From Escherichia phage vB_EcoS_HdK1, in sequence record MK373794.1: DNA of 64,000 nt; one strand, given 5' to 3'. Positions within the stretch are counted from its first letter, which is position 1, and each line of letters opens with the position of its first letter. Below are positions 1-64,000 of the stretch, in pieces. Both the position numbers and the translations under genes were made by a program. Under the pieces are notes generated by a model. That model was not told the DNA's origin. It was given only the letters and a program-made list of their open reading frames with translations, and did not search any database.

Positions 1-339
1 ATAAAGGGGTCTCGTGGGGTCGTCAGTAGACAACTCAAAAATAAAAAATCTTTATAAAATTTATATAAATACACACATATACACATTTTTACCTTATTTT
101 TCATGCACTTACCTCCTTTCATTTCGTATATTAAGCGACAATATACGAGCAATATAAGAAATATTTGTTGCGCAACAACGAGGCGCTCACAAGCTCGCGC
201 ACGCGCATAATGCGGGCACGCGGTCTAACACAAAAGAAAATTGAATTGCAAGCGATTTTTGCTGAGGTAACTCTCGAAGCGAAAGCGATTTGCGAGTTTG
301 AAATTTTGTAGCCCGAAAACGATTCTATTTTATGGTATA

Positions 340-660
340 AATGTCGGATTTTTCGGTGAAAGGTGGCTTTTCGGTGAGGTTGGGTGGCTGGGATCGGTGT
401 AACTGGTAGCCCATAAAGCGAAAATAGCCGCGAAAACGGGGCACGCAGCGCGATTAAATGGTTGGATCAGTGTAAGGGTGGCGGTGAGGGGGCGAAAATG
501 CCGCAAAATCGCTTACAGGGATGCAGGGAGTGGGCCGCTGTAAGGGCGTATAAGGCGATTAAATTGGAGTCTATGGTAATGTATGGAAGATGGATTTAGG
601 CTCTTAGAGCGCGAATGGTGGAGCTATGGGTGAGGAATATGTGGTCAGCAGGGTAGCGCG
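340..660. repeat. Non-coding G-rich region with reiterated CGGTGAGG / TGTAAGGG-like short motifs
   Basis: No ORF of 60 aa or more; repeated motifs such as cggtgaaagg, cggtgagg, cagtgtaaggg, ggcggtgaggggg, gctgtaaggg, gggtgagg read directly in the sequence. Confidence 0.5.
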
Positions 661-675
661 GGAGGTTATGCAGGT

Positions 676-714
676 ACAAAAACGAAAGCGCCCCGTTGGA
701 CTTCAACAGGGCGC
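676..714 (-). terminator. Rho-independent terminator candidate downstream of the leftward small-gene operon
   Basis: GC stem gcgccc / gggcgc (688..693 and 709..714) with 15-nt loop; on the minus strand it is followed by a T-rich tract (revcomp of 676..687). Lies just past the stop of CDS 738..986. Confidence 0.4.
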
Positions 715-737
715 GGATTGTATAATGCTTTTAGAAG

Positions 738-986
738 TTATTTACTAGTTAATAATACCGCCCAGGTATTATCTGGAAGCGTACCAACTCCGAGTATCTT
801 AAACTGAAGCGACTTGTTCTGCATGTTGTAGTTGTCGAGTAACTCCTGGGCAGCCGCAGCAGCGTTCGCTTCACCGTTCAGGTTGTAGTCGTTTGCAGTT
901 ATTGCACACATACCGAGACCGACCGCTTTGAAGCGCATACCTTTGGATTGAGTCGGTGCAAGTGCTTTAACATGGATAGCGTTCAT
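738..986 (-). CDS. hypothetical protein (82 aa)
   Basis: ORF with GGAGA Shine-Dalgarno-like sequence upstream of the ATG; balanced composition. Confidence 0.6.
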   Translation of the reverse strand: MNAIHVKALAPTQSKGMRFKAVGLGMCAITANDYNLNGEANAAAAAQELLDNYNMQNKSLQFKILGVGTLPDNTWAVLLTSK

Positions 987-1015
987 ATTATTTATCTCCG
1001 TTACAATTTGAAAGG

Positions 1016-1279
1016 TTAGCAGTTTTTTAACAGGTTGATGAAGCCCACCAGCGTGGACGCTGTTGCAACCAGGCGGCCCATAGTATGCAGTTCCGCGTAA
1101 ACTTTACCGTCGTCAAACACAGTTAAATAAACGTTAAGACCATTGCAACGGACGCGATATTTGCGCGAGTTATTACCAAAAGTTTCCAGCTCTGCGGTGA
1201 TAGTCGCAAGATTAGCTATACGTTTGCCGATAATGCGGCGAGTGATAGTGGACTGGTTTAATACTGTAGACATAATCAT
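1016..1279 (-). CDS. hypothetical small protein (87 aa); paralog of 2588..2893
   Basis: ORF with AGAGGAA RBS; N-terminal motif QSTITRRIIGKR shared with the protein at 2588..2893 (QSQITKRIIGKR). Confidence 0.6.
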   Translation of the reverse strand: MIMSTVLNQSTITRRIIGKRIANLATITAELETFGNNSRKYRVRCNGLNVYLTVFDDGKVYAELHTMGRLVATASTLVGFINLLKNC

Positions 1280-1341
1280 TTCCTCTGTTAACTATGCGAA
1301 GTGCATATTATTGCCCACTGTTACTATGGGCAATGTATATG

Positions 1342-1506
1342 TCACTCAGCGGACACATATTCTAACGCTTCTGATAGTGTAGCGAAGTAACCATCGCTCA
1401 CCAGATTAATAGCGTACTCAAGTTGATCGCGGGTCAGGTTGCGAAACTTGTTACGGATGTGATAGCAACGACCGCGATAAATAACCTGGAAATAGTTGCG
1501 TTCCAT
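1342..1506 (-). CDS. hypothetical small protein (54 aa; ORF-track version 1342..1662 is probably over-extended)
   Basis: Internal ATG at 1506 is preceded by AAGGGGA RBS; the longer ORF overlaps the well-formed gene 1517..1762 in another frame. Confidence 0.4.
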   Translation of the reverse strand: MERNYFQVIYRGRCYHIRNKFRNLTRDQLEYAINLVSDGYFATLSEALEYVSAE

Positions 1507-1516
1507 AATTATCCCC

Positions 1517-1762
1517 TTATGCAACGATGAACGCGTAACCGCTTTGATCCGGGAGTTCACCACCGGAAAGAATTTCAAACTCAACGCCCGCTTTATCGCT
1601 GAACTTTTTGATAAGCTCTTCCGCTGCGGCGCGGTGGTTGCCGTAAACACCAAGATCGTCACGCCACGTGATAGTCAAGGAGCCGTTCCAACCTGTTGCT
1701 TTTACGCGCGGGTTACGGGTGGCAGTCGGGTTCATGAATTTTGTGATGATAGCTTGAGCCAT
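1517..1762 (-). CDS. hypothetical protein (81 aa)
   Basis: ORF with GGAG RBS upstream; protein-like composition. Confidence 0.55.
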   Translation of the reverse strand: MAQAIITKFMNPTATRNPRVKATGWNGSLTITWRDDLGVYGNHRAAAEELIKKFSDKAGVEFEILSGGELPDQSGYAFIVA

Positions 1763-1767
1763 GATAA

Positions 1768-1953
1768 TTACTCCGGTAAAATTACAGTGACGTTAATATT
1801 TGCAAGGCGAGCGCACTCGCGGAAACCTTTTACATAAGCATCCATTTCGTCATAGGATGCGAAAGTTGCGTCCGGGACTGGTCCGTTGTTAATATTCACG
1901 CAATATTCGTGTTCGTCCAGGTCAACCCAACAAGTCAGAACGATAGTTTCCAT
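1768..1953 (-). CDS. hypothetical small protein (61 aa; start at internal ATG)
   Basis: ATG at 1953 preceded by GGAGGG RBS; ORF-track version extends to 1986. Confidence 0.45.
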   Translation of the reverse strand: METIVLTCWVDLDEHEYCVNINNGPVPDATFASYDEMDAYVKGFRECARLANINVTVILPE

Positions 1954-2031
1954 ATTATTTGCCCTCCGTATAATACAGACCCGCAACTATTGGAGCTCCG
2001 AAAACTAAGAAAGCTAATAAATAGAACATAA

Positions 2032-2511
2032 TTAGTTACCCCCTTTATTGTTGAGCCCGTTGAATTTACGCCATGCGTAGAATTCAATCGTTGCATTATT
2101 AATATTCCAACCATTAGCTTTCGCAAGGTCACGGACGTTACCAATAGTTGGCACACCATCAGGCAACATATTATCCAGGGCATTCCAAACGTCTGCGCAT
2201 TTACCTTTAATCGGGCGACGAACCCCGTTGCGCGTTTCGCTGCGCGTTTTGCTCTTGGCTGGAGCGACCGGAGCTTGTTGTGTGGTCACTTCCACGACAG
2301 TCGCTTTATCAGCTTCCACCAGATCGCTAGCTGCCTTATTAACCGCGCTTTCGCTGTACCAGTAGCGACCACCGTCTTCGTGCGGTTCCTGGTGAATAAA
2401 GCTATTTGCTGTCGCAGTGTCCACATCCAGAACCTTTTTTAAGGCACGGCGAGCGTTAGACATAGTGGCGAAGAAGCGAGCGTCTTTTGCTACGCGAGTG
2501 ATAGTAACCAT
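2032..2511 (-). CDS. hypothetical protein (159 aa)
   Basis: ATG at 2511 with GGAGA RBS; ORF-track version 2032..2526. Confidence 0.55.
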   Translation of the reverse strand: MVTITRVAKDARFFATMSNARRALKKVLDVDTATANSFIHQEPHEDGGRYWYSESAVNKAASDLVEADKATVVEVTTQQAPVAPAKSKTRSETRNGVRRPIKGKCADVWNALDNMLPDGVPTIGNVRDLAKANGWNINNATIEFYAWRKFNGLNNKGGN

Positions 2512-2587
2512 TGTGAATATCTCCATGTTGTTCTAGCGGATTGCTAGTGGGAGCCCACTGTTACAATGGGCAACCATTAGCACGCTA

Positions 2588-2893
2588 TTATTGTTGAATA
2601 GCTTTATCTATCATTGCGATGAAGCAGAACACAGACCAAAGGCTATTCGCTTGGCATACTGCGCGACCATACATTACGCTATAAGAGCTGACAGTACCGT
2701 CCTCGTTAATGCGAATATATAACGCGGTGCTGGAATACTTTTCGTTGCCCGGGAGCATTACTAAATACTCGTCGAAACCCCAATCCCCGTCGACTTTTTC
2801 CGCAGTAAGGCCCAGTTGGTGCAGTCGCTTGCCAATAATGCGCTTAGTAATCTGAGATTGGGACATGGAACGCGGTAAGTAGATAATGGACAT
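2588..2893 (-). CDS. hypothetical small protein (101 aa); paralog of 1016..1279
   Basis: ATG at 2893 with AGGGAGA RBS; shares the ITKRIIGKR N-terminal motif with 1016..1279; ORF-track version extends to 3010. Confidence 0.55.
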   Translation of the reverse strand: MSIIYLPRSMSQSQITKRIIGKRLHQLGLTAEKVDGDWGFDEYLVMLPGNEKYSSTALYIRINEDGTVSSYSVMYGRAVCQANSLWSVFCFIAMIDKAIQQ

Positions 2894-2968
2894 AATGCAA
2901 TCTCCCTTCGGGTGAGGCGGGCGCGGAACCCGTGTCCCGCTTAACAACCCCCTTAACCCTACACAGTT

Positions 2969-2997
2969 ATAGTATGACAACGGGGTATCAGATGCAA
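2969..2997 (-). promoter_or_regulatory. sigma70-like promoter candidate driving leftward transcription of 2893..738
   Basis: Minus strand reads TTGCAT-N17-TACTAT (revcomp of 2992..2997 and 2969..2974). Confidence 0.25.
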
Positions 2998-3073
2998 CTA
3001 TTATCTGCAATATTTTAGAACTTTTTTAGTTGTGTTTCATAATAATAACATCCGGGACTATGCGGTAGATGGT

Positions 3074-3147
3074 GTGCCGGAAATACCAGGTAGCGCGAGC
3101 GTGCCGAAAATACCAGGTAACAGCACGCGCCGAACATACCAGGTAGC
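3074..3147. repeat. Three 21-bp direct repeats (iteron-like), consensus GyGCCGrAmATACCAGGTArC
   Basis: gtgccggaaataccaggtagc (3074..3094), gtgccgaaaataccaggtaac (3101..3121), gcgccgaacataccaggtagc (3127..3147); spacing 27 and 26 bp; non-coding region. Confidence 0.6.
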
Positions 3148-3535
3148 ACATACATAGACAGCACATAGTGGGCAGGTGGATAGTAACAGATGCAATTATA
3201 CTGGACGGTACAGTATAGTCATGTAATAGATAGCATACTAATTAAATAAAAAATAATAACGCGTGTAACAATAAACAACGTTACAGTAGAGCGCGCAACA
3301 GTCACATGACGTAACAATCACCTCACTGACGATCACGGGACGTTATAGTAACGCCGCGGGGCGGCTCTTAGATCTCTGCCAAGGATTCTAGACGTAAACA
3401 TTGAATCGCCACTAGACTATTTACATCACAACCTCACTCCTCACACAATAATACATAGAATTTAAATCCGTATATAAATACTCGAGATAGTATCTACATA
3501 TTCGAGGATGAGTGCTCAATCATTGTAGGTTATAA

Positions 3536-4015
3536 ATGCGTATCAATTGGTGTGATTATTTCTCTTACGAAGATGGTAGACTTTACTGGAAGGCCAGTAG
3601 AGGAAGAATACGAGTAGGTTCAGAAGCCGGAAGCGAGGACCAACAAGGTTACATTGTGGTCAGGTTAAACGGGAAAGATTATAAAGCCCACCGCATCATT
3701 TGGGAAATGCACTATGGGCCGATACCAGAAGGAATGGAAGTTGACCACATTTGGCATAACCGAAAAGATAACCGGATTGAGAATCTGCGGTTAGTGACGC
3801 GTACAGGTAATGGGCGTAATCAGTCTAAATTTGCGACAAATACATCAGGTGTAACTGGTGTGAATTGGAATAGCCGGGCTGGTAAATGGAGAGCGGAAAT
3901 TTATGTTGATGGAAAGCATATATCTCTTGGTTTATTCACAATCTTTAATGATGCTGTCTTAGCGCGTAAATCGGCCGAGGCTAAGTATGGTTTCCATAAA
4001 AATCATGGCGAGTGA
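3536..4015 (+). CDS. HNH homing endonuclease with AP2 DNA-binding domain
   Basis: HNH motif EVDHIWHNRKDNRIENL; AP2-like segment GVTGVNWNSRAGKWRAEIYVDGKHISLGLF. Confidence 0.8.
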   Translation: MRINWCDYFSYEDGRLYWKASRGRIRVGSEAGSEDQQGYIVVRLNGKDYKAHRIIWEMHYGPIPEGMEVDHIWHNRKDNRIENLRLVTRTGNGRNQSKFATNTSGVTGVNWNSRAGKWRAEIYVDGKHISLGLFTIFNDAVLARKSAEAKYGFHKNHGE

Positions 4016-8130: not shown

Positions 8131-8160
8131 TTGACATTTGCTATAACCCTTGCAATTAAT
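8131..8160 (+). promoter_or_regulatory. sigma70-like promoter candidate for the terminase/morphogenesis operon
   Basis: TTGACA (8131..8136), then 18 nt, then ATTAAT; lies immediately after the terminator and about 50 nt before the terS RBS. Confidence 0.3.
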
Positions 8161-8206
8161 TAATCCACCGCTTATATTCGTGTCAAGAATCGACAGGAGT
8201 AACGTT

Positions 8207-8758
8207 ATGGTAAAGCCTATTCTACCTTGGACACGTAGCATTGAATACGAAGCCGATCTCACTAAAGAAGAGATGGCTATACGTGACTCTGTCGTTGAAG
8301 AATATCTGTTCGATTATGATTGGGTTAATGCGTGTAAACGTGTAGGCATGAGCTCCGCAATGGCGTTTGATTATGCTAAACGTTTTCAGGATGATAGCTA
8401 TTGCCAAAGACGAATTAAAGAACTTCAACAGCAGAAAGCAAGAAGTGCTCAACGTGACAGCAAATATGAAATAGAACAAGAGCGCCAGCGCATCATTGAA
8501 GGTCTTAGATTTGAATCCACTTATCGTGGTCCTGGATCTTCTCAAGCTGCTCGTGTTGCTGCATATAAACAATTATGTAGCATCTTTGGATTTGAAGCTC
8601 CTAAGCAACAGAAGATGGATGTTGGTGTATCTACTGGTGTTATGCTGGTTCCTATGGTTGGTTCTATGGATGATTGGGAAAGAGTTGCTGGGGAGTCTCA
8701 GACTAAGCTGCAAGAGGATACTTTAAATGGACTCAATGATTCAGACACCGTCCACTAA
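8207..8758 (+). CDS. terminase small subunit (putative)
   Basis: Position immediately upstream of and overlapping terL; AGGAG RBS 7 nt before ATG at 8207 (ORF-track version begins at 8150). Confidence 0.5.
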   Translation: MVKPILPWTRSIEYEADLTKEEMAIRDSVVEEYLFDYDWVNACKRVGMSSAMAFDYAKRFQDDSYCQRRIKELQQQKARSAQRDSKYEIEQERQRIIEGLRFESTYRGPGSSQAARVAAYKQLCSIFGFEAPKQQKMDVGVSTGVMLVPMVGSMDDWERVAGESQTKLQEDTLNGLNDSDTVH

Positions 8759-10325
8759 GGTAGTATGGAAACCACATCCAGGATCTCAGGTACTGGCACT
8801 GAGTTGTCCAGCGGATGAGATTTTATATCATGGTACTCGTGGCCCTGGAAAGACCGATGCCCAGTTGATGCGTTTTCGTCGTTATGTTGGCATGGGGTAT
8901 GGTAAACACTGGCGCGGTATCATTTTTGACCGAGAATACAAAAACTTAGATGACTTAGTTGCAAAGTCACAGCGTTGGTTTCCTGAATTTAATGATGGTT
9001 GTAAATTCTTATCTTCCAAGTCAGATTATAAATGGGTATGGCCTAGCGGCGAAGAACTAATGTTCCGTGTTGCTAAAAAGCCTAAGGATTACTGGCTGTA
9101 CCACGGTCAGGAATTTCCATTTATTGGATGGAACGAATTAACTAAATATCCCGATAGTGGGCTTTATGAAGCAATGAAGTCTTGTAACCGTACATCCTTT
9201 GTTGCAGAAGAAAACCCGATAATTATTGACGGTGACGTGTATCAGAGAACTGGGCGTCTTGTGCTTGTTCAACCGGACCATGAATACGCAATGCAGTTCA
9301 TACTACCACCTTTGCCGTTGCAGATCTTTTCTACGACTAACCCATTTGGGGTTGGACATAACTGGGTCAAGAAATATTTTATTAACTCCTGTCCTCTTGG
9401 GTCCATGAAGAAGGAAGTAACAAACGTCTTCAACCCGCGTACACAGAAACGGGAAGACGTAGTTCGAACTCGCTGCCATATATTTGGTTCGTATCGAGAG
9501 AACCGCAACTTGACACCCGAGTATGTTGCGCAGCTTGTAAACATTGACGATCCTAACCTCCGTATGGCATGGCTCGGTGGTAGCTGGGATATTACGTCAG
9601 GTGGAATGTTCGACGACCTGTGGCGCCAGAATATACATGTGGTCAAACCATTTCCAATACCTCACTCCTGGAGAATTGATAGATCATTTGACTGGGGCTC
9701 AAGTAAACCGTTTTCTGTCGGTTGGTGGGCAAGAAGTGATGGTAGCGATATCGTGTATCCAAATGGGCGTCGTGTACGAACAGTACGAGGTGACTTATTT
9801 AGGATCATGGAGTGGTATGGTACTAACGGGAAACCGAACGAAGGTTTAAGATTATTGGATTCTGAAATTGCTCGTGGTATCATCGTCAGGGAAATTGAAG
9901 CTGGTTTATACGGTCGCGTAGTTCCAGGCCCTGCTGATAACAGCATTTGGGACGTTAAGGATGGTAACAGTACCGCAGCAACAATGTCTAAACCAATAAC
10001 CATCAATGGTCGGTCTTATCCAGGTGTACAGTGGATTCGAAGTGATAAATCTCCTGGATCTCGTAAAGCAGGTTGGAAACGAATGCGGGAATATTTAGCT
10101 GCTTCAATTCCGGATCCTAAGGTTGCCGCTTTACGTGAAAGACCTTCTATGTTTATTTTTGACAACTGTCATCACTTTATAGATCTTGTTCCAACTCTTG
10201 CCAGAGACGAAGATGATCTTGATGATGTCGATACTGATTCTGAAGACCACATTGCTGACGAAGCTCGTTATCGCGTAGCCAACGAAGCACGTGGCGGTAG
10301 TATCGGTAAGACTGTGGGGACATAA
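8727..10325 (+). CDS. terL: terminase large subunit
   Basis: 532 aa; Walker A-like GTRGPGKTD near the N-terminus; size and position typical of TerL ATPase/nuclease. Confidence 0.85.
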   Translation: MDSMIQTPSTKVVWKPHPGSQVLALSCPADEILYHGTRGPGKTDAQLMRFRRYVGMGYGKHWRGIIFDREYKNLDDLVAKSQRWFPEFNDGCKFLSSKSDYKWVWPSGEELMFRVAKKPKDYWLYHGQEFPFIGWNELTKYPDSGLYEAMKSCNRTSFVAEENPIIIDGDVYQRTGRLVLVQPDHEYAMQFILPPLPLQIFSTTNPFGVGHNWVKKYFINSCPLGSMKKEVTNVFNPRTQKREDVVRTRCHIFGSYRENRNLTPEYVAQLVNIDDPNLRMAWLGGSWDITSGGMFDDLWRQNIHVVKPFPIPHSWRIDRSFDWGSSKPFSVGWWARSDGSDIVYPNGRRVRTVRGDLFRIMEWYGTNGKPNEGLRLLDSEIARGIIVREIEAGLYGRVVPGPADNSIWDVKDGNSTAATMSKPITINGRSYPGVQWIRSDKSPGSRKAGWKRMREYLAASIPDPKVAALRERPSMFIFDNCHHFIDLVPTLARDEDDLDDVDTDSEDHIADEARYRVANEARGGSIGKTVGT

Positions 10326-12874: not shown

Positions 12875-12883
12875 TAAAATTTG

Positions 12884-12912
12884 TTGACACTCCCTCCGGT
12901 TGGTGCTAGTTT
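12884..12912 (+). promoter_or_regulatory. promoter-like element and structured 5' leader before the major capsid gene
   Basis: TTGACA at 12884..12889; weak -10 (TAGTTT); 9-bp inverted repeat ctccggttg / caaccggag in the leader. Confidence 0.25.
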
Positions 12913-13012
12913 TACATCAACCGGAGCACGGGCTCCGATCAATCAAGGATTATTGGAGCCTCCCACGGCGGTAGAGTTCCAAAGTAAATCGATTAACTTT
13001 GCGGAGACTACC

Positions 13013-13573
13013 ATGTCTAAAATTCTGTCAGCTCCGATGCTTAATTTGCGAGCTACCAATTCAATTCTTCTGTCTGCTGTTCGTCGTGGTGCAATCACTG
13101 AACTTGCAGATGTTATCGTTCCAGAGATCTTCGTACCGTATGTGCAGAACCGCACAACTGAAAAGTCCCGACTGATCCAGTCTGGTGCTATTGAGATTTC
13201 TGAGCGTCTTAACGCTGCATTGATGGGTGAAGGTACTACCTTTAACCAGCGTTTCTTCAAAGATCTGGATCGTGACGAAGAAAACGTTTCAAGCGCAAGC
13301 GATTCAACCGATTCTACTCCTGGTGGTATCAAATCTGGGCGTGAAATTCAGATCCGTCTGTCCCGTAACCATTCCTGGGGTTCTGCGGACCTGCTGGACA
13401 GCCTGATCTCCCCGGACCCGCTGGATGCTATCATTAACTTAGTGGCAAGCTACCGTCAGAGCCGTCTGCAACGTGCATTCGTTGCAACTGTCAGTGGTGT
13501 GTTTGCTATGAACGCCGCTGCTCTCCGGTTGGTTCCGGTGATAAGAAGTCTACCCATGTTCAGAACGATATGA
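13013..13573 (+). CDS. major capsid protein, N-terminal fragment (gene interrupted by frameshift)
   Basis: ATG at 13013 with GGAG RBS; ORF terminates at 13573 while the capsid-like sequence continues in the -1 frame. Confidence 0.7.
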   Translation: MSKILSAPMLNLRATNSILLSAVRRGAITELADVIVPEIFVPYVQNRTTEKSRLIQSGAIEISERLNAALMGEGTTFNQRFFKDLDRDEENVSSASDSTDSTPGGIKSGREIQIRLSRNHSWGSADLLDSLISPDPLDAIINLVASYRQSRLQRAFVATVSGVFAMNAAALRLVPVIRSLPMFRTI

Positions 13574-14130
13574 CCCATGATATCTCTGGTTCATCCTTCA
13601 CTGATGGTGTGACTAACTTCAACCCGGCCGGTGTTATCCTGGCGGCTGGTACTATGGGTGACTCCCTGAACGACCTGTCCATGATGATGGTTCACAGTGT
13701 GGTTTACCAGCGTATGCAGCTGATGAACCTGATCGACTTCATCCCGGATGCCCGTGCTGAAGTAATGATCCCAACTTACATGGGCCGTGAAGTTATCGTT
13801 GATGATATGATGCCTCACGATAGCGGTAAGTACGAAACCTGGCTGGTCGGTCGTCGTGGTGCATTCCAGTTAGGTGTTGGTTCACCGAAAGTTCCTGTTG
13901 AAACTGAACGTAAACCTGCGTCCTACAAAGGTGGCGGTTCTGAAATCCTGTTCCACCGCTGGGAAAACATCATTCACCCTGTCGGTCACGCATGGGTTGG
14001 TACTGCTGCTGAAGGTGGCCCGGATAACGCCGCTCTGAAGACTGCTGCCAACTGGGCTCGTGTATTCCCTGAGCGTAAACAGATTAAGATTGCTCGCCCT
14101 GATCACTCGCGAACACGCTTAATGCTTTAG
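13570..14130 (+). CDS. major capsid protein, C-terminal fragment
   Basis: Open frame continues upstream of 13570 into the previous ORF (GSGDKKSTHVQND...); combined length about 370 aa fits an HK97-fold capsid protein. Confidence 0.7.
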   Translation: MTHDISGSSFTDGVTNFNPAGVILAAGTMGDSLNDLSMMMVHSVVYQRMQLMNLIDFIPDARAEVMIPTYMGREVIVDDMMPHDSGKYETWLVGRRGAFQLGVGSPKVPVETERKPASYKGGGSEILFHRWENIIHPVGHAWVGTAAEGGPDNAALKTAANWARVFPERKQIKIARPDHSRTRLML

Positions 14131-24348: not shown

Positions 24349-27300
24349 ATGCCACCAGCAATAATTGGAGCTGTAGTTGCTATCGGGGCAGCGGCTGGCG
24401 CAGCGGCAGGTATTATCACAGCCACTACCGCGCTTGTGATTGGTATTGCTGCCAGTGCTGCTGGAGCTCTACTTACAAAAACTCAGAGCTATAACTTTGA
24501 CTCCTATACACCTCAGAGCGAGCGTAAACAGGTTATTCGTGCCGCCGCTGCATCTAGAACTGTGATTTATGGGACAACTGTGTCTAGTGGTGTTCTTGTA
24601 TTTGCAGAAGAAGAACCAGGAGTACAAGATCCAGATAAACACGGTGAGAACTACGAGAAGTTGACTCTTGTATTGGCGTTAGCCGGACACGAACTGACAG
24701 AAGTAGGACAAGTGTGGTTAGGGGACGATCCAATAGGTACTTATGCTGGAAACGCATCCTATAAGGTATACAACAACCCTACTACGGTCAGTCAAGACAT
24801 GTTAAATCGTTGCCCATCATGGAAAAGGGACATGATTGGTAAAGGTATCTGCTGGATGCAATTGAATCTAGTATATGATTCACAGAAGTTTCCAGCTGGG
24901 CTTCCTAATGTCAAATGTGTTAAGAAGGGGAGAAAAGTTCTAGACCCTAGAACTGGTCAGATGGTGTTTAGCAATAATGCCGCCCTTGTGATTTTGGACT
25001 ATCTTCGAGTGTATCTTAAACGCGGAGACGATTCAATTCTTTGGGACCAGTTCAAAGAGGCCGCTAACATATGTGATGAAAGAGTTAAGAACGCGGATGA
25101 CACGTTTGAATCCCGGTATACTATCAACGGGGAATTTGACATGGATGAAGCACCTTCCAAGATCCTGGAAGACATGCTTGACGCTTGCGGTGGGGAGTTG
25201 ACTTATATCGGCGGTAAGCATGGTATCCTAGTAGGTGCATATTACGGGCCTCCTGAATTAACTCTGGATACGAGTTGCATTGCTGGTGACATTAAAATCA
25301 CACCAGAGACAGCTTTTAAAGATCGAACTAATACAATCACAGGTACTTACATCGATCCTCTGCAAAACTATCAAGAAGCAGACTTCCCGTCTGTAAGTGT
25401 TTCTGAATGGGTACAACAAGACGGTCAAGAGATTACACAAGACGTCGATTATCGTTTTGTCACAAGCCCATATCAGGCTCAACGTCTAGCTAACTTGACG
25501 TTGAAACGCAAACGTATTGGTCGTTCCATCGAGATACCATGTAACATGCGTGGGTATCGTTTCCGTCCAGGTATGTATGTCTACGTTGACATTCCTAATA
25601 TTGGAATGAACAAAGTAGAGATGCGTGTTATTAAGTGGCAGTTTGATCCGAAAGGTGGTGTCACTGTAACTGTACGTCAAGACTTCCCGGACTTATGGGA
25701 CGATGCAATTGGCAAACCTGTAGAGCGACCAGATCTAGTGGATTTGCCTACTGGTGGCGCTATGCAACCTCAGAACCTACAATATGAAGTCTTACAAATT
25801 AGCGACGTTGTACAGGGTGTTCTGTCGTGGCAAAATATAATGGCTGTAGCCTACAACAACGTAGTAATTAAGAAAGATGGTACTACCGTATTGACGGTGC
25901 AAGTACCGGGCCAGAGCACGCGGATTACGGGGCTTATTCGCGGCGCTTATACAGCACATGTGAAAGCTGTGGCGTATACCGGCGCAACAAGTCCAGAAGC
26001 GTATCTTGAATTCAATATTCAAGCACCTTCCGCTCCTACGTCTGTTGAAGTGACGCAAGGCTACTTCGCAGTAACATTGAAACCAAAATCTGCAGATCTA
26101 GCTAACGTTAGTACACAATATGATTTCTGGACGTCCGGTGAAACAAGATTACCATCCGCCGCTGTAGACGTTGTAGAACGACAGGCCACCCGTGCTGGTA
26201 TGGGCACAACGTGGACTTCAGAGGGGTTGCTTAATGACCACACTTATTACTGGTACGTGCGGGCAATTAATGCTTTTGGTTCTTCTTCATTTGTAGAGGT
26301 GGCTGCAAGATGCTTCACAGATGCTGCTGGCCTTATTCCGCAAATTGACACAGAGTTCAAAGGTACTAACACCTATAAAGAACTTATGGCTGAGATTGGA
26401 AGCGTCAGCGATGGTGTCAAGAGTTATGTGGACGACCAAATTGAAACCTCTGAAGGGCGCTTAACTCAAACAATAGATACAGTGCAACAATCTGTAGTTC
26501 TTGTTGACGGTAAAGTGCAGCAACAAGGCGTCACAATCAATGAACAGGGGCAGTTAATAGATGCTCAAGGTAAGTTAATTGAGACAAACGGCCAACAGAT
26601 TAATGTGGTCAAAGCTACCGTACAGGAAGTCAGTAAGTCCGTTGTGGATCTTGAAGGTAACGTCAACGCTCAGTGGGGTGCCAAGATCCAGGTGGATAGT
26701 AAAGGTCAAAAATACGTTGCCGGTATTCAGTTAGGTATGGAAGGTTCCGGTGGAGCTATCCAATCTTACTTTATGGTCAACGCCAACAACTTTGCTATCT
26801 ATAACCCAACTAACAGCACAGCGGATTTAGCATTTGCAGTTAAAAACGGTCAAGTGTTCATGAAGGCAGCGTTCATTGAGAACGGTTCTATTGATAATGC
26901 TAAGATCGGTAACTATATTCAATCTAACAACTATGTAGCTGGTTCTGCAGGCTGGAAGTTGAATAAAGCTGGGGATGCTGAACTGAATAATGTTGTCGTG
27001 AGGGGTACGGTATATGCCACAAACGGTAGATTCACAGGCGAGATACAAGCAACTAGTGGGACATTTAAAGGTACAGTTGAAGCAAGTAGATTTATCGGGG
27101 ATGTAGTCGCAATCTATACTTTCCCAGATATATTAAGTATAGGTACGGATATTTCCGGTGAGCAATATAAAGTATACACTTATAATGACTCGTCATCCTC
27201 CCCACAAGCAAGATCTGTTGTATTTGATTGTATAGTGAGAACTACAAATACTACAAATGGATATAAATTAAAACTAACATTAGCAGGTCAATATAGGGAA

Positions 27301-59772: not shown

Positions 59773-60393
59773 TTACGCTCCAAACTGATCAATGTATTCA
59801 ATGAGCTCTTGCAATTCTTGCTGTAACTGCACATTACCACTATTATTCGTCTGAAGTCTAACGAGGCGTTCCTTGATATGTGCAATGTGGTTAGTGCCCA
59901 TCCGACGCTTCTGTACATCACACCAGCGAACAACACCATCTTCAATATATGCACGACGGGCTTTACCACGCGGGTATCGCAGCGGCGCCGAATTTCACAC
60001 TTATCGCCCACCCACTTAAAGCCCAGGATCATAACAGCGTTACCTTCCGTATCAGGACACACGTCAAAACAACTGTTGAACCCTTTACTGCGCATATACT
60101 CGTCGAGCGGAATCACCTTATCAGGCGACAACCATTGATACCCGAAGTAAATATCGACAGTGAACACCGTACCCAACATCGGAGCCGACCAGCACATATA
60201 CATCCGCCCGTCATCCAACTTCTTGACCGCATTCGGCCCGCAACACGAGGCCAGCCGCCTTCCACGCTTTGACCACATTAATCGTGTTGTCCTGCTCCTG
60301 AAAGATTGCGTCTGCCTGCATATATGTAGGCGCGTCCCAGCCCGAACATTTCCTTTACATGAGCATTAGTGATTTTAACCTTTTGATTGCGCA
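59773..60393 (-). CDS. hypothetical early protein, frameshifted (at least 2 frame changes)
   Basis: ATG at 60393 (MRNQKVKITNAHVKEMFGLGRAYIYAGR...) stops after 38 codons; protein-like sequence continues in two other frames down to a stop at 59773. Confidence 0.4.
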
Positions 60394-60446
60394 TAACCTC
60401 ACCTTTGATGATAATAAATCGATTAATTTTGAAATTCAGTTGCCGG

Positions 60447-60474
60447 TTTTATGTTTATTTTACGCAATGTGTTT
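60447..60474 (-). promoter_or_regulatory. sigma70-like promoter candidate for the leftward early operon
   Basis: Minus strand reads TTGTAT-N16-TAAAAT (revcomp of 60469..60474 and 60447..60452), about 50 nt upstream of the ATG at 60393. Confidence 0.35.
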
Positions 60475-60600
60475 TGCAATACAATATTGATATATTTTGT
60501 TTTTGCATTGCAATGTTTTTGTATTGCAAAAATTACAACAGTCTGAAGGTGAGAAATTGCAAATTTATAAAGATTGGTGAAAAAATGCACAATTTATAAA
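60455..60600. repeat. Cluster of TTGCAA / TTGCAAT palindromic half-sites and duplicated AATTTATAAAGATT element
   Basis: ttttgcaatacaat, tttgcattgcaatg, tgtattgcaaaaa, aaattgcaaattt; aatttataaagatt occurs twice (about 60562 and 60590). Confidence 0.5.
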
Positions 60601-60692
60601 GATTCAGCAATATACGAAACGGCGAAGCGAAGTGTATGAAAAATAAGGGAAAATTTCGAGAGTTGGGAGGTTTGTAGTGATTTATATTATTT

Positions 60693-63600
60693 ATAAAGGG
60701 GTCTCGTGGGGTCGTCAGTAGACAACTCAAAAATAAAAAATCTTTATAAAATTTATATAAATACACACATATACACATTTTTACCTTATTTTTCATGCAC
60801 TTACCTCCTTTCATTTCGTATATTAAGCGACAATATACGAGCAATATAAGAAATATTTGTTGCGCAACAACGAGGCGCTCACAAGCTCGCGCACGCGCAT
60901 AATGCGGGCACGCGGTCTAACACAAAAGAAAATTGAATTGCAAGCGATTTTTGCTGAGGTAACTCTCGAAGCGAAAGCGATTTGCGAGTTTGAAATTTTG
61001 TAGCCCGAAAACGATTCTATTTTATGGTATAAATGTCGGATTTTTCGGTGAAAGGTGGCTTTTCGGTGAGGTTGGGTGGCTGGGATCGGTGTAACTGGTA
61101 GCCCATAAAGCGAAAATAGCCGCGAAAACGGGGCACGCAGCGCGATTAAATGGTTGGATCAGTGTAAGGGTGGCGGTGAGGGGGCGAAAATGCCGCAAAA
61201 TCGCTTACAGGGATGCAGGGAGTGGGCCGCTGTAAGGGCGTATAAGGCGATTAAATTGGAGTCTATGGTAATGTATGGAAGATGGATTTAGGCTCTTAGA
61301 GCGCGAATGGTGGAGCTATGGGTGAGGAATATGTGGTCAGCAGGGTAGCGCGGGAGGTTATGCAGGTACAAAAACGAAAGCGCCCCGTTGGACTTCAACA
61401 GGGCGCGGATTGTATAATGCTTTTAGAAGTTATTTACTAGTTAATAATACCGCCCAGGTATTATCTGGAAGCGTACCAACTCCGAGTATCTTAAACTGAA
61501 GCGACTTGTTCTGCATGTTGTAGTTGTCGAGTAACTCCTGGGCAGCCGCAGCAGCGTTCGCTTCACCGTTCAGGTTGTAGTCGTTTGCAGTTATTGCACA
61601 CATACCGAGACCGACCGCTTTGAAGCGCATACCTTTGGATTGAGTCGGTGCAAGTGCTTTAACATGGATAGCGTTCATATTATTTATCTCCGTTACAATT
61701 TGAAAGGTTAGCAGTTTTTTAACAGGTTGATGAAGCCCACCAGCGTGGACGCTGTTGCAACCAGGCGGCCCATAGTATGCAGTTCCGCGTAAACTTTACC
61801 GTCGTCAAACACAGTTAAATAAACGTTAAGACCATTGCAACGGACGCGATATTTGCGCGAGTTATTACCAAAAGTTTCCAGCTCTGCGGTGATAGTCGCA
61901 AGATTAGCTATACGTTTGCCGATAATGCGGCGAGTGATAGTGGACTGGTTTAATACTGTAGACATAATCATTTCCTCTGTTAACTATGCGAAGTGCATAT
62001 TATTGCCCACTGTTACTATGGGCAATGTATATGTCACTCAGCGGACACATATTCTAACGCTTCTGATAGTGTAGCGAAGTAACCATCGCTCACCAGATTA
62101 ATAGCGTACTCAAGTTGATCGCGGGTCAGGTTGCGAAACTTGTTACGGATGTGATAGCAACGACCGCGATAAATAACCTGGAAATAGTTGCGTTCCATAA
62201 TTATCCCCTTATGCAACGATGAACGCGTAACCGCTTTGATCCGGGAGTTCACCACCGGAAAGAATTTCAAACTCAACGCCCGCTTTATCGCTGAACTTTT
62301 TGATAAGCTCTTCCGCTGCGGCGCGGTGGTTGCCGTAAACACCAAGATCGTCACGCCACGTGATAGTCAAGGAGCCGTTCCAACCTGTTGCTTTTACGCG
62401 CGGGTTACGGGTGGCAGTCGGGTTCATGAATTTTGTGATGATAGCTTGAGCCATGATAATTACTCCGGTAAAATTACAGTGACGTTAATATTTGCAAGGC
62501 GAGCGCACTCGCGGAAACCTTTTACATAAGCATCCATTTCGTCATAGGATGCGAAAGTTGCGTCCGGGACTGGTCCGTTGTTAATATTCACGCAATATTC
62601 GTGTTCGTCCAGGTCAACCCAACAAGTCAGAACGATAGTTTCCATATTATTTGCCCTCCGTATAATACAGACCCGCAACTATTGGAGCTCCGAAAACTAA
62701 GAAAGCTAATAAATAGAACATAATTAGTTACCCCCTTTATTGTTGAGCCCGTTGAATTTACGCCATGCGTAGAATTCAATCGTTGCATTATTAATATTCC
62801 AACCATTAGCTTTCGCAAGGTCACGGACGTTACCAATAGTTGGCACACCATCAGGCAACATATTATCCAGGGCATTCCAAACGTCTGCGCATTTACCTTT
62901 AATCGGGCGACGAACCCCGTTGCGCGTTTCGCTGCGCGTTTTGCTCTTGGCTGGAGCGACCGGAGCTTGTTGTGTGGTCACTTCCACGACAGTCGCTTTA
63001 TCAGCTTCCACCAGATCGCTAGCTGCCTTATTAACCGCGCTTTCGCTGTACCAGTAGCGACCACCGTCTTCGTGCGGTTCCTGGTGAATAAAGCTATTTG
63101 CTGTCGCAGTGTCCACATCCAGAACCTTTTTTAAGGCACGGCGAGCGTTAGACATAGTGGCGAAGAAGCGAGCGTCTTTTGCTACGCGAGTGATAGTAAC
63201 CATTGTGAATATCTCCATGTTGTTCTAGCGGATTGCTAGTGGGAGCCCACTGTTACAATGGGCAACCATTAGCACGCTATTATTGTTGAATAGCTTTATC
63301 TATCATTGCGATGAAGCAGAACACAGACCAAAGGCTATTCGCTTGGCATACTGCGCGACCATACATTACGCTATAAGAGCTGACAGTACCGTCCTCGTTA
63401 ATGCGAATATATAACGCGGTGCTGGAATACTTTTCGTTGCCCGGGAGCATTACTAAATACTCGTCGAAACCCCAATCCCCGTCGACTTTTTCCGCAGTAA
63501 GGCCCAGTTGGTGCAGTCGCTTGCCAATAATGCGCTTAGTAATCTGAGATTGGGACATGGAACGCGGTAAGTAGATAATGGACATAATGCAATCTCCCTT

Positions 63601-64000
63601 CGGGTGAGGCGGGCGCGGAACCCGTGTCCCGCTTAACAACCCCCTTAACCCTACACAGTTATAGTATGACAACGGGGTATCAGATGCAACTATTATCTGC
63701 AATATTTTAGAACTTTTTTAGTTGTGTTTCATAATAATAACATCCGGGACTATGCGGTAGATGGTGTGCCGGAAATACCAGGTAGCGCGAGCGTGCCGAA
63801 AATACCAGGTAACAGCACGCGCCGAACATACCAGGTAGCACATACATAGACAGCACATAGTGGGCAGGTGGATAGTAACAGATGCAATTATACTGGACGG
63901 TACAGTATAGTCATGTAATAGATAGCATACTAATTAAATAAAAAATAATAACGCGTGTAACAATAAACAACGTTACAGTAGAGCGCGCAACAGTCACATG
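60693..64000. repeat. Window-end exact duplication, copy 2 (identical to 1..3308); contains duplicate copies of the small minus-strand early genes
   Basis: Same as copy 1; all ORFs at 61430..63702 duplicate those at 738..3010. Not re-listed individually. Confidence 0.9.

Follow-up and report, generated by a model that had tools for sequence, protein, structure and literature searches.

The genome record of Escherichia phage vB_EcoS_HdK1 (MK373794.1) carries the same sequence at its two ends, and the question that this raises is whether the duplication is a real feature of the virion DNA or a product of the way in which the genome was assembled and presented. The window considered here is the whole stretch of DNA analysed, 64,000 nucleotides long, which corresponds to nt 1–64,000 of the 64,059-bp record, such that 59 nt of the right-hand copy are cut off. 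On comparison of the window with itself, positions 1–3308 and 60693–64000 match at 3,308 of 3,308 positions with no mismatches, just as the original prediction had it, and the period of the duplication sets the unit genome at 60,692 bp; the first 100 bases of the window occur at positions 1 and 60693 only. An exact repeat of 3.3 kb cannot have arisen by chance. Exact repeats are likewise found at the record ends of the related phages HdSG1 and ECP2304, and the evidence set out below indicates that, very probably, the virion DNA of this Nonagvirus is a linear molecule without permutation and the duplication is its direct terminal repeat (DTR), the whole consisting of the 60,692-bp unit and a second copy of the ~3,367-bp repeat.

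The extent of the repeat is given by its relatives. The expectation that it runs on past the end of the window holds, by 59 nt, in that homology with HdSG1 and with phage 9g puts its end at 3367. The left copy is accordingly taken as 1–3367, within which 1–3308 is duplicated in the window and 3309–3367 is assigned from this homology, and the right copy starts at 60693 and is identical to 1–3308 up to the window edge at 64000. The full length of the repeat is thus predicted, from homology, to be about 3,367 bp. The sum of 60,692 and 3,367 bp is 64,059 bp, a total that was predicted before the published size of HdK1 was compared; that size is 64,059 bp, with a GC content of 44.07% (Korf 2019, Table S4, PMC6563267), and the GC content of the window is 44.06%. 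The same table gives terminal repeat lengths for HdK1 and HdSG1, in which the HdK1 entry of ‘3,48’ (3,480 bp) is 113 bp above the 3,367 bp allowed by the 60,692-bp period together with the 64,059-bp total. The genomes in that study were linearised at the points where most reads came to an abrupt end (Korf 2019, PMC6563267).

The window belongs to the genus Nonagvirus (Queuovirinae), with 95.8% identity to JenP2 and 94.8% to HdSG1, 86–96% identity over the regions tested and synteny with the 9g group. The relationship to 9g extends to the packaging proteins, the portal protein being 98% identical to that of 9g and the large terminase subunit (8727–10325, plus strand) 100% identical; the small subunit is encoded just before it at 8150–8758 on the same strand (phrog_5334, E = 2e-63). 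The right end of the repeat, after ...GCCGCGGGGCGGCTC, falls at window 3367 by homology with HdSG1 and 9g, and lies at the edge of a plus-strand element at 3331–3367 in which two copies of SRYCRCGGGRCG (3331–3342 and 3352–3363) are followed by GCTC/TTAG, where the slash denotes the terminus. A block of ~90 nt across this terminus is nearly invariant in an alignment of 13 phages, and window 3367 aligns exactly with nt 28,243 of 9g. That nucleotide has been identified by run-off sequencing as an end of the virion DNA (Tsai 2017, PMC5567051) and is the one read-start hot spot reported in 9g (Kulikov 2014, PMC4276943; Tsai 2017, PMC5567051). It is well supported by this alignment that window 3367 is the terminase cut site mapped in 9g, a phage with an identical large terminase.

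The left end lies at window 1 (= 60693), and this placement is well supported to within a few nucleotides. The plus-strand sequence across the terminus (60690–60698) reads TTT/ATAAAG, is invariant in the 13 phages, and continues as TTT/ATAAAGGGG; the first bases of the HdK1 record are expected to be ATAAAGGGGTCTCG. HdSG1 (MK373795.1) has an exact 3,363-bp repeat, the ends of which align to window −2 and window 3367; in other words, its record starts 3 nt earlier than the window does, with TTTATAAAG as against ATAAAG. Public contigs from four unrelated sequencing data sets also break at, or no more than 7 nt from, the two boundaries. At the left boundary one contig (L033) starts at the exact nucleotide, another (L030) 3 nt inside it and a third (L035) 7 nt outside it, such that this end agrees within 3–7 nt in five independent data sets (HdK1, HdSG1, L030, L033 and L035); at the right boundary contigs L029 and L030 end exactly at 3367. 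Among short independent contigs, 5 of 14 ends are within 7 nt of a boundary, and one contig, 3,084 nt long, starts 3 nt inside the left end, runs through the repeat and stops exactly at the right end. In IMG/VR the cut-site block occurs on unit-length contigs or on genomes of isolates, which are uninformative with respect to ends, and a search of papers on Seuratvirus and on the BASEL phages turned up no additional mapping of ends. Judged from the data of these relatives, both termini are at defined nucleotides.

The rival explanation which best survives these observations is that of pac-initiated headful packaging, which is the model put forward for 9g by the authors who mapped its cut site and who measured a terminal redundancy of 3.0–3.2 kb (Tsai 2017, PMC5567051). 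On this model only the GC-rich site at 3367 is cut precisely, packaging stops at a non-specific position once the head is full, leaving ~3 kb of redundancy with some permutation, and the sharp left boundary of the HdK1 record is merely the choice of an assembler; the report of a single read-start hot spot in 9g, at the right boundary, is in keeping with it. What such packaging would require, however, is that redundancy should shrink as the unit grows, and this is not seen: the units of HdK1 and HdSG1 differ by 460 bp, yet their left boundaries agree in sequence to within 3 nt and their repeats are ~3,367 and 3,363 bp, while 9g, with a unit 4 kb shorter, has a redundancy of ~3.1 kb and not ~7 kb. 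The repeat lengths inferred for 13 phages span 2,960–3,969 bp and correlate with unit length at +0.44, not negatively, which argues against headful packaging, albeit more weakly given that these lengths were computed on the assumption of conserved boundaries. Nor is there the variable, diffuse far end that the model calls for, since the left end is constant to within a few nucleotides, with independent contigs starting at or within 7 nt of it, and the terminal band of 9g is discrete.

This last point can be made quantitative. With the left end of 9g at the homologous position, 25,163, its repeat is predicted to be 3,081 bp, which fits the measured 3.0–3.2 kb. An in-silico DraI digest with the ends so fixed finds no site inside the repeat and yields terminal fragments of 8,363 and 8,235 bp out of a map fragment of 13,517 bp. 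The published DraI digest of 9g contains a doublet at ~8.4 kb and lacks a 5.2-kb band (Tsai 2017, PMC5567051), and terminal fragments of the two predicted sizes account for both features. The left-terminal fragment is a discrete band of the size expected from a fixed end, and discrete terminal fragments, here in the relative 9g, indicate a genome that is not permuted. Taken together, headful packaging appears improbable. The other rival, that an assembler left overlapping ends on an assembly that was circular or concatemeric, or that a 60,692-bp record was wrapped around to make up the 64 kb of the window, finds some favour in the unit-length public contigs of relatives that continue uninterrupted through the region, in the absence of the repeat from most deposited relatives and in the frequency with which long-read assemblers produce kilobase overlaps at contig ends, but it is scarcely credible when an arbitrary overlap would not share its start and end nucleotides with the HdSG1 repeat, when it would not be expected to coincide with the mapped end of 9g or with the places at which contigs from four other data sets break, and when the published 64,059 bp and the listed terminal repeat place the duplication in the deposited record rather than in the windowing. 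Of the two readings originally offered for the duplication, that of a long direct terminal repeat is thus the one upheld, by boundaries which match those of HdSG1 (within 3 nt), the mapped virion end of 9g, its DraI pattern and the contig breaks, whereas circular permutation or assembly wrap-around, for which no such boundary positions would be hit, falls away.

Given a direct terminal repeat with fixed ends, it is of interest what might fix them. Both boundaries fall in near-invariant sequence blocks, and the left one has distinctive surroundings. The motif TTTATAAAG, of which 0.8 copies are expected per window, occurs four times in the whole unit genome: at 60690–60698 (+), across the terminus itself, at two further plus-strand sites, 60564–60572 and 60593–60601, found by a sequence scan, and at 60742–60750 (−; window 50–58). 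All four copies are within 130 nt of the terminus, a clustering that was seen around 0 of 300 random centres. The terminus is, moreover, flanked by a 24-nt inverted repeat spanning 60630–60802, whose arms (60630–60653 and 60779–60802) are 92% complementary; the left arm shows almost no variation among the 13 phages and the right arm is conserved over its first part, which is the portion inside the alignment. A common recognition motif for the two boundaries, YCGYGGGGYSGYY, was considered and set aside, as it matches those two sites only but was derived from them post hoc; in an unbiased genome scan with the 16-mer of the right boundary, the left boundary matched at 8 of 16 positions and hundreds of other positions scored 9 or more. 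We tentatively suggest, as a possibility that falls somewhat short of being probable, that the length of the repeat may instead be set by two unlike signals: a GC-rich initiation site, with its two copies of SRYCRCGGGRCG and a cut after 3367, and a dedicated AT-rich end site, with its four copies of TTTATAAAG, the terminus in one of them and the 24-nt inverted repeat around it. Both signals are within a non-coding block of ~1.15 kb which is better conserved than the adjacent genes.

The repeat itself carries an early/late divergent promoter region and seven leftward early genes. Six small open reading frames had originally been counted in it, a number which has to be raised to seven on the annotation of relatives; all are on the minus strand (738–986, 1016–1279, 1342–1506, 1517–1762, 1768–1953, 2032–2526 and 2588–2893), and they include two pairs of paralogues, 738–986 with 1517–1762 and 1016–1279 with 2588–2893. 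All PHROG matches of the encoded proteins are to families of ‘unknown function’, and a Pfam search gave no match at E ≤ 0.1. On the 3′ side of the last of these genes is a strong intrinsic-terminator-like hairpin on the minus strand (688–714, detected at 61406–61380), which the HdSG1 annotation lists as a terminator. The promoter region, at 3014–3222, comprises a rightward promoter-like site (3014–3043) and a leftward one (3222–3195), and the annotated promoters of 9g are at the homologous position. As for the iteron-like repeats of the original prediction, repeats do exist, but they amount to three tandem copies of a 26-nt unit (3074–3148) situated between the two promoter-like sites, the unit being conserved in relatives. 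About 740 nt of the repeat is highly conserved non-coding DNA. A search of the conserved non-coding region for structured RNA with Rfam returned sub-threshold chance hits only, to a microRNA family and to a family of Drosophila lncRNA.

A mechanism can be proposed by which such a genome might be made and used. Replicated concatemers would contain one copy of the repeat per junction, and the terminase would cut them in a sequence-specific manner at two distinct sites separated by 3.4 kb. Strand-displacement synthesis, as has been proposed for T7-type DTR phages, could then duplicate the repeat so as to leave a copy at each virion end; we infer both this mode of duplication and the direction of packaging. 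After injection, recombination or annealing of the two copies may give rise to replicative forms, and each end of the incoming DNA would bring in the early promoter together with the first genes that it drives, comparable to the pre-early genes in the terminal repeat of T5.

That the duplication is biology and not assembly error means that each virion truly has two copies of the promoter region and of all seven genes. It also means that, for the most part, the deposited Nonagvirus and Seuratvirus genomes (56.7–60.8 kb), which lack the repeat, understate the length of the virion DNA by 3–4 kb. A terminal repeat has already been reported for this phage group, and to phage specialists the finding is correct but ordinary and unsurprising; its main practical value is one of annotation. 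Beyond this, the ~3-kb redundancy of 9g, published as headful with permutation, fits a fixed-end repeat quantitatively, which corrects the published interpretation. To our knowledge, the origin of long exact terminal repeats is not understood in any long-DTR phage, and the conserved end signals offer a concrete entry point to it. Were the two-signal proposal true, and were a single terminase or accessory protein to read both signals, these phages, which are small and easy to grow, would provide a tractable E. coli model for the making of kilobase exact terminal repeats.

Several known systems can be compared with HdK1. HdSG1 is of the same genus and has the same seven minus-strand open reading frames, terminator and promoter region, although it differs by ~5% in sequence and has a unit of 60,232 bp rather than 60,692 bp. 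Phage 9g shares an identical cut-site block and a terminal redundancy of ~3 kb, but its record, unlike that of HdK1, was deposited without the repeat and its redundancy was read by its authors as headful with permutation. Further away, the Seuratvirus ECP2304 (OR880647.1), with a large terminase 66.5% identical, has an exact repeat of 3,695 bp at the same map position and with the same layout, and the Pseudomonas phage iggy (Queuovirinae) has a DTR of 1,091 bp; in neither can the boundary sequences be aligned with those of the window. The left end of ECP2304 was observed to be inside a GGAATAAT motif, which recurs nearby and has a 22-nt inverted repeat around it. An AT-rich end-site cluster of the Nonagvirus kind was also sought in this Seuratvirus and the candidate discarded, as no ECP2304 k-mer passes the clustering test that TTTATAAAG passes in Nonagvirus. 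Outside the subfamily, the terminal repeats of T5 are about 10 kb and contain pre-early genes, and those of T7 are short, at 160 bp. Both phages resemble HdK1 in having exact, non-permuted repeats with fixed ends, and in T5, too, the genes held by the repeat are small, early and of unknown or host-takeover type; neither has any sequence relationship to HdK1, the repeat of which is intermediate in size between the two.

The two ends of the window are the same sequence: direct comparison matches 60693–64000 to 1–3308 without a mismatch, every one of the 3308 positions being equal, just as the original prediction had it, and the first 100 bases of the window have no copies besides the two repeat starts, which sets a period of 60,692 bp. 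For an exact repeat of 3.3 kb, a chance origin is far out of reach. The duplicated stretch is limited solely by the edge of the window, and the earlier guess that the repeat extends past that edge is borne out by alignment with the sister Nonagvirus vB_EcoS_HdSG1 (MK373795.1), the linear record of which (63,595 bp) carries an exact 3,363-bp repeat at both ends. The left end of HdSG1, TTTATAAAGGGG, aligns with window position −2 (the window itself starts ATAAAGGGG, and its right copy is preceded by TTT at 60690–60692), and the right end, ...GCCGCGGGGCGGCTC, aligns with window position 3367. From this boundary alignment, therefore, come a repeat of ~3,367 bp and, with the 60,692-bp period, a total of 64,059 bp, a value predicted before the published size was known. 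Table S4 of Korf et al. 2019 (PMC6563267), a paper which covers both HdSG1 and a second Nonagvirus, vB_EcoS_HdK1, gives HdK1 as 64,059 bp with 44.07% GC and lists a terminal repeat; the GC content of the window is 44.06%. The window almost certainly covers nt 1–64,000 of HdK1, the last 59 nt of the right copy lying beyond its edge. The same table puts the HdK1 repeat at ‘3,48’, to be read as 3,480 since trailing zeros are omitted there; with this period and total the maximum is 3,367 bp, a discrepancy of 113 bp. The HdSG1 repeat differs by 1 bp between table (3,362) and record (3,363).

The right boundary lies inside a near-invariant block of ~90 nt in 13 Nonagvirus genomes, ending ...GACGTTATAGTAACGCCGCGGGGCGGCTC/TTAGATCTCTGCCAAGGATTC. 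In phage 9g the final base of GGCGGCTC is nt 28,243, a position where Kulikov et al. (2014, PMC4276943) found a hot spot of read starts, marking the physical end of the virion DNA, and where Tsai et al. (2017, PMC5567051) located the cut made by terminase through run-off sequencing on virion DNA. The 12-nt ‘pac core’ of the latter authors, SRYCRCGGGRCG, has only two copies in the window, at 3331–3342 and 3352–3363, both within the cut-site block at 3331–3367. A sequence-specific cut by terminase is thus well supported as the origin of the right end. Kulikov et al. also observed that read coverage in the early half of 9g was ~1.5-fold that in the late half, and that it changed abruptly at nt 28,243 (window 3367); this step is not accounted for by a 3-kb terminal repeat.

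The nature of the left end is where the interpretations diverge. Tsai et al. modelled 9g packaging as headful, with a redundancy of 3.0–3.2 kb and circular permutation (PMC5567051), such that the left end would be set by the capacity of the head. Against this, the left ends of HdK1 and HdSG1 lie 3 nt apart despite a 460-bp difference in their units, the genome with the repeat counted once, and the repeats are ~3,367 and 3,363 bp. When the left end of each of the 13 phages is placed at the conserved boundary sequence, the computed repeats span 2,960–3,969 bp on units of 56.7–60.75 kb with a correlation of +0.44, whereas a fixed head capacity would require a strict negative dependence; moreover, the measured redundancy of 9g is about 3 kb though its unit is 4 kb shorter. 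The 9g restriction data point the same way. The DraI sites around the cut site (19,881 and 33,398) define a map fragment of 13,517 bp, and the predicted repeat contains no DraI site. In silico, the right-terminal fragment that results from cutting at 28,243 is 8,363 bp long; the left-terminal one is 8,235 bp if the left end is fixed at 25,163, and would be 5,154 bp without the repeat. The published digest has no 13.5-kb band, a doublet at ~8.4 kb and no 5.2-kb band (PMC5567051), matching the fixed-end fragments; fixed ends are expected to yield discrete bands.

Further evidence for a fixed left end comes from short contigs of about repeat length, carrying the largest repeat-encoded protein, in unrelated public assemblies. 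One (Logan ERR1301420, 3,084 nt) starts AAGGGGTC, 3 nt inside window position 1, and ends exactly at GGCGGCTC, as does a second (ERR1301370); of two others, one from a metagenome of Copenhagen sewage begins at precisely ATAAAGGGGTC and one (SRR10359458) 7 nt upstream of it, while three further contigs have ends away from the boundaries. Hence 5 of the 14 contig ends fall within 7 nt of a boundary, far above chance, and picking contigs by repeat length cannot create coincidences at the nucleotide level. Unit-length contigs pass straight through the region, as expected when the assembly of a genome with a direct terminal repeat closes into a circle and retains a single copy of the repeat. There is good support both for a left end fixed to a few nucleotides and for linear virion DNA that has ~3.37 kb of identical sequence at each end.

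Around this left terminus lies a non-coding block of ~1.15 kb (60,279–60,692 plus 1–737, the latter being the non-coding part of the repeat), which is conserved above the adjacent genes in the 13 phages, the first 125 nt of the repeat being 92–96% invariant. The terminus falls within a copy of TTTATAAAG, a motif with only four copies in the unit genome, at 60564, 60593 and 60690 (plus strand) and 60742 (minus strand). All lie within 130 nt of the terminus; 0.8 copies would be expected per window, and none of 300 random centres had a similar cluster. A 24-nt inverted repeat (60630–60653 and 60779–60802) brackets the terminus. A single motif common to both genome ends was also considered and fails an unbiased test. 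Tiny ORFs in the block are placed inconsistently by different annotators, and an Rfam search of it returned no credible match. The block may carry signals for packaging, for the genome end or for an origin, or else promoters that serve the early genes downstream of it.

Further into the repeat are seven small minus-strand ORFs (738–2893), followed by a strong terminator-like hairpin (688–714, minus strand) that is annotated as a terminator in HdSG1. All seven belong to PHROG families of unknown function and none has a Pfam match. Two families occur twice each, phrog_3199 and phrog_13865, pairing 738–986 with 1517–1762 and 1016–1279 with 2588–2893 (all minus strand), and therefore small early genes have been duplicated inside the repeat. 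At 3014–3222, rightward and leftward promoter-like sites face each other, at positions homologous to annotated promoters of 9g; between them the 26-nt unit GTGCCGAAAATACCAGGTAGCAGCAC stands three times in tandem (3074–3148). The unit is kept in relatives, its 17-nt core being exact one to three times, and the array could act as operators in switching between early and late expression or as origin iterons.

All 17 phage records that match the repeat come from Nonagvirus, the genus of phage 9g-like viruses in the subfamily Queuovirinae; identities are 95.8% for JenP2 and 94.8% for HdSG1, and a search with the junction region gave the same picture. GC skew and ORF orientation divide the window into two divergent arms: a plus-strand arm (~3.5 to 34 kb) with terminase, portal, head and tail genes, and a minus-strand arm (~34 to 60.7 kb, on through the repeat) with what in relatives are replication and early genes. 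The terminase small subunit lies at 8150–8758 and the large at 8727–10325; the latter has 100% protein identity to that of 9g, and the portal 98%. Compared with 9g, an insertion of 2 nt at about 13,521–13,522, GCTGCTCTCC versus GCTG--CTCC, breaks the major capsid protein gene (13013–14130) in two, such that 9g capsid residues 1–170 are found in one frame and 169–360 in another, and ORFs 12881–13573 and 13570–14130 stand in place of a single 367-aa ORF. As the gene is essential, the frameshift probably reflects an error in the recorded sequence. Just right of the repeat, an HNH endonuclease (HNH_3 with a weak AP2 match; 3536–4015, plus strand) occupies the place of a 288-nt ORF in relatives, and the window departs from 12 of 12 relatives from 3389 on, 21 nt beyond the terminus (3389–3535 being the upstream part), a likely homing-endonuclease replacement beside the genome end.

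The repeat as such is already known, a terminal repeat having been reported for HdK1 and HdSG1 (PMC6563267) and a ~3-kb redundancy for 9g (PMC5567051). The present comparison adds three things: it equates, to the nucleotide, the 9g cut site with the end of the HdK1/HdSG1 repeat; it reinterprets the restriction data on 9g, in quantitative terms, as those of a fixed-end repeat instead of headful packaging; and it describes the cluster of AT-rich motifs at the left terminus.

By analogy with T7- and T5-type phages with direct terminal repeats, replication would generate concatemers with one copy of the repeat at each junction, in which the terminase would cut at two different sites; the repeat would be duplicated, each head thereby receiving the unit and one extra copy, and after injection the repeats might recombine to give replicative forms. 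Among relatives, Seuratvirus ECP2304 (OR880647.1) has an exact 3,695-bp repeat of the same layout, and a direct terminal repeat of 1,091 bp is present in Pseudomonas phage iggy, which is less closely related within the Queuovirinae. In ECP2304 a 22-nt inverted repeat flanks the left end, which falls within a GGAATAAT motif that recurs nearby, a loose parallel to the Nonagvirus layout without sequence similarity, and a left-end motif cluster is not demonstrable in that phage; its repeat genes are annotated in the right copy only. The authors of the 9g studies suggested that packaging proceeds leftward from the GC-rich site (PMC4276943, PMC5567051). If so, packaging would finish and injection begin with the left end, and the first DNA to enter the cell would be the repeat, and with it the early promoter and the seven small genes, a putative role which recalls the pre-early region of T5.
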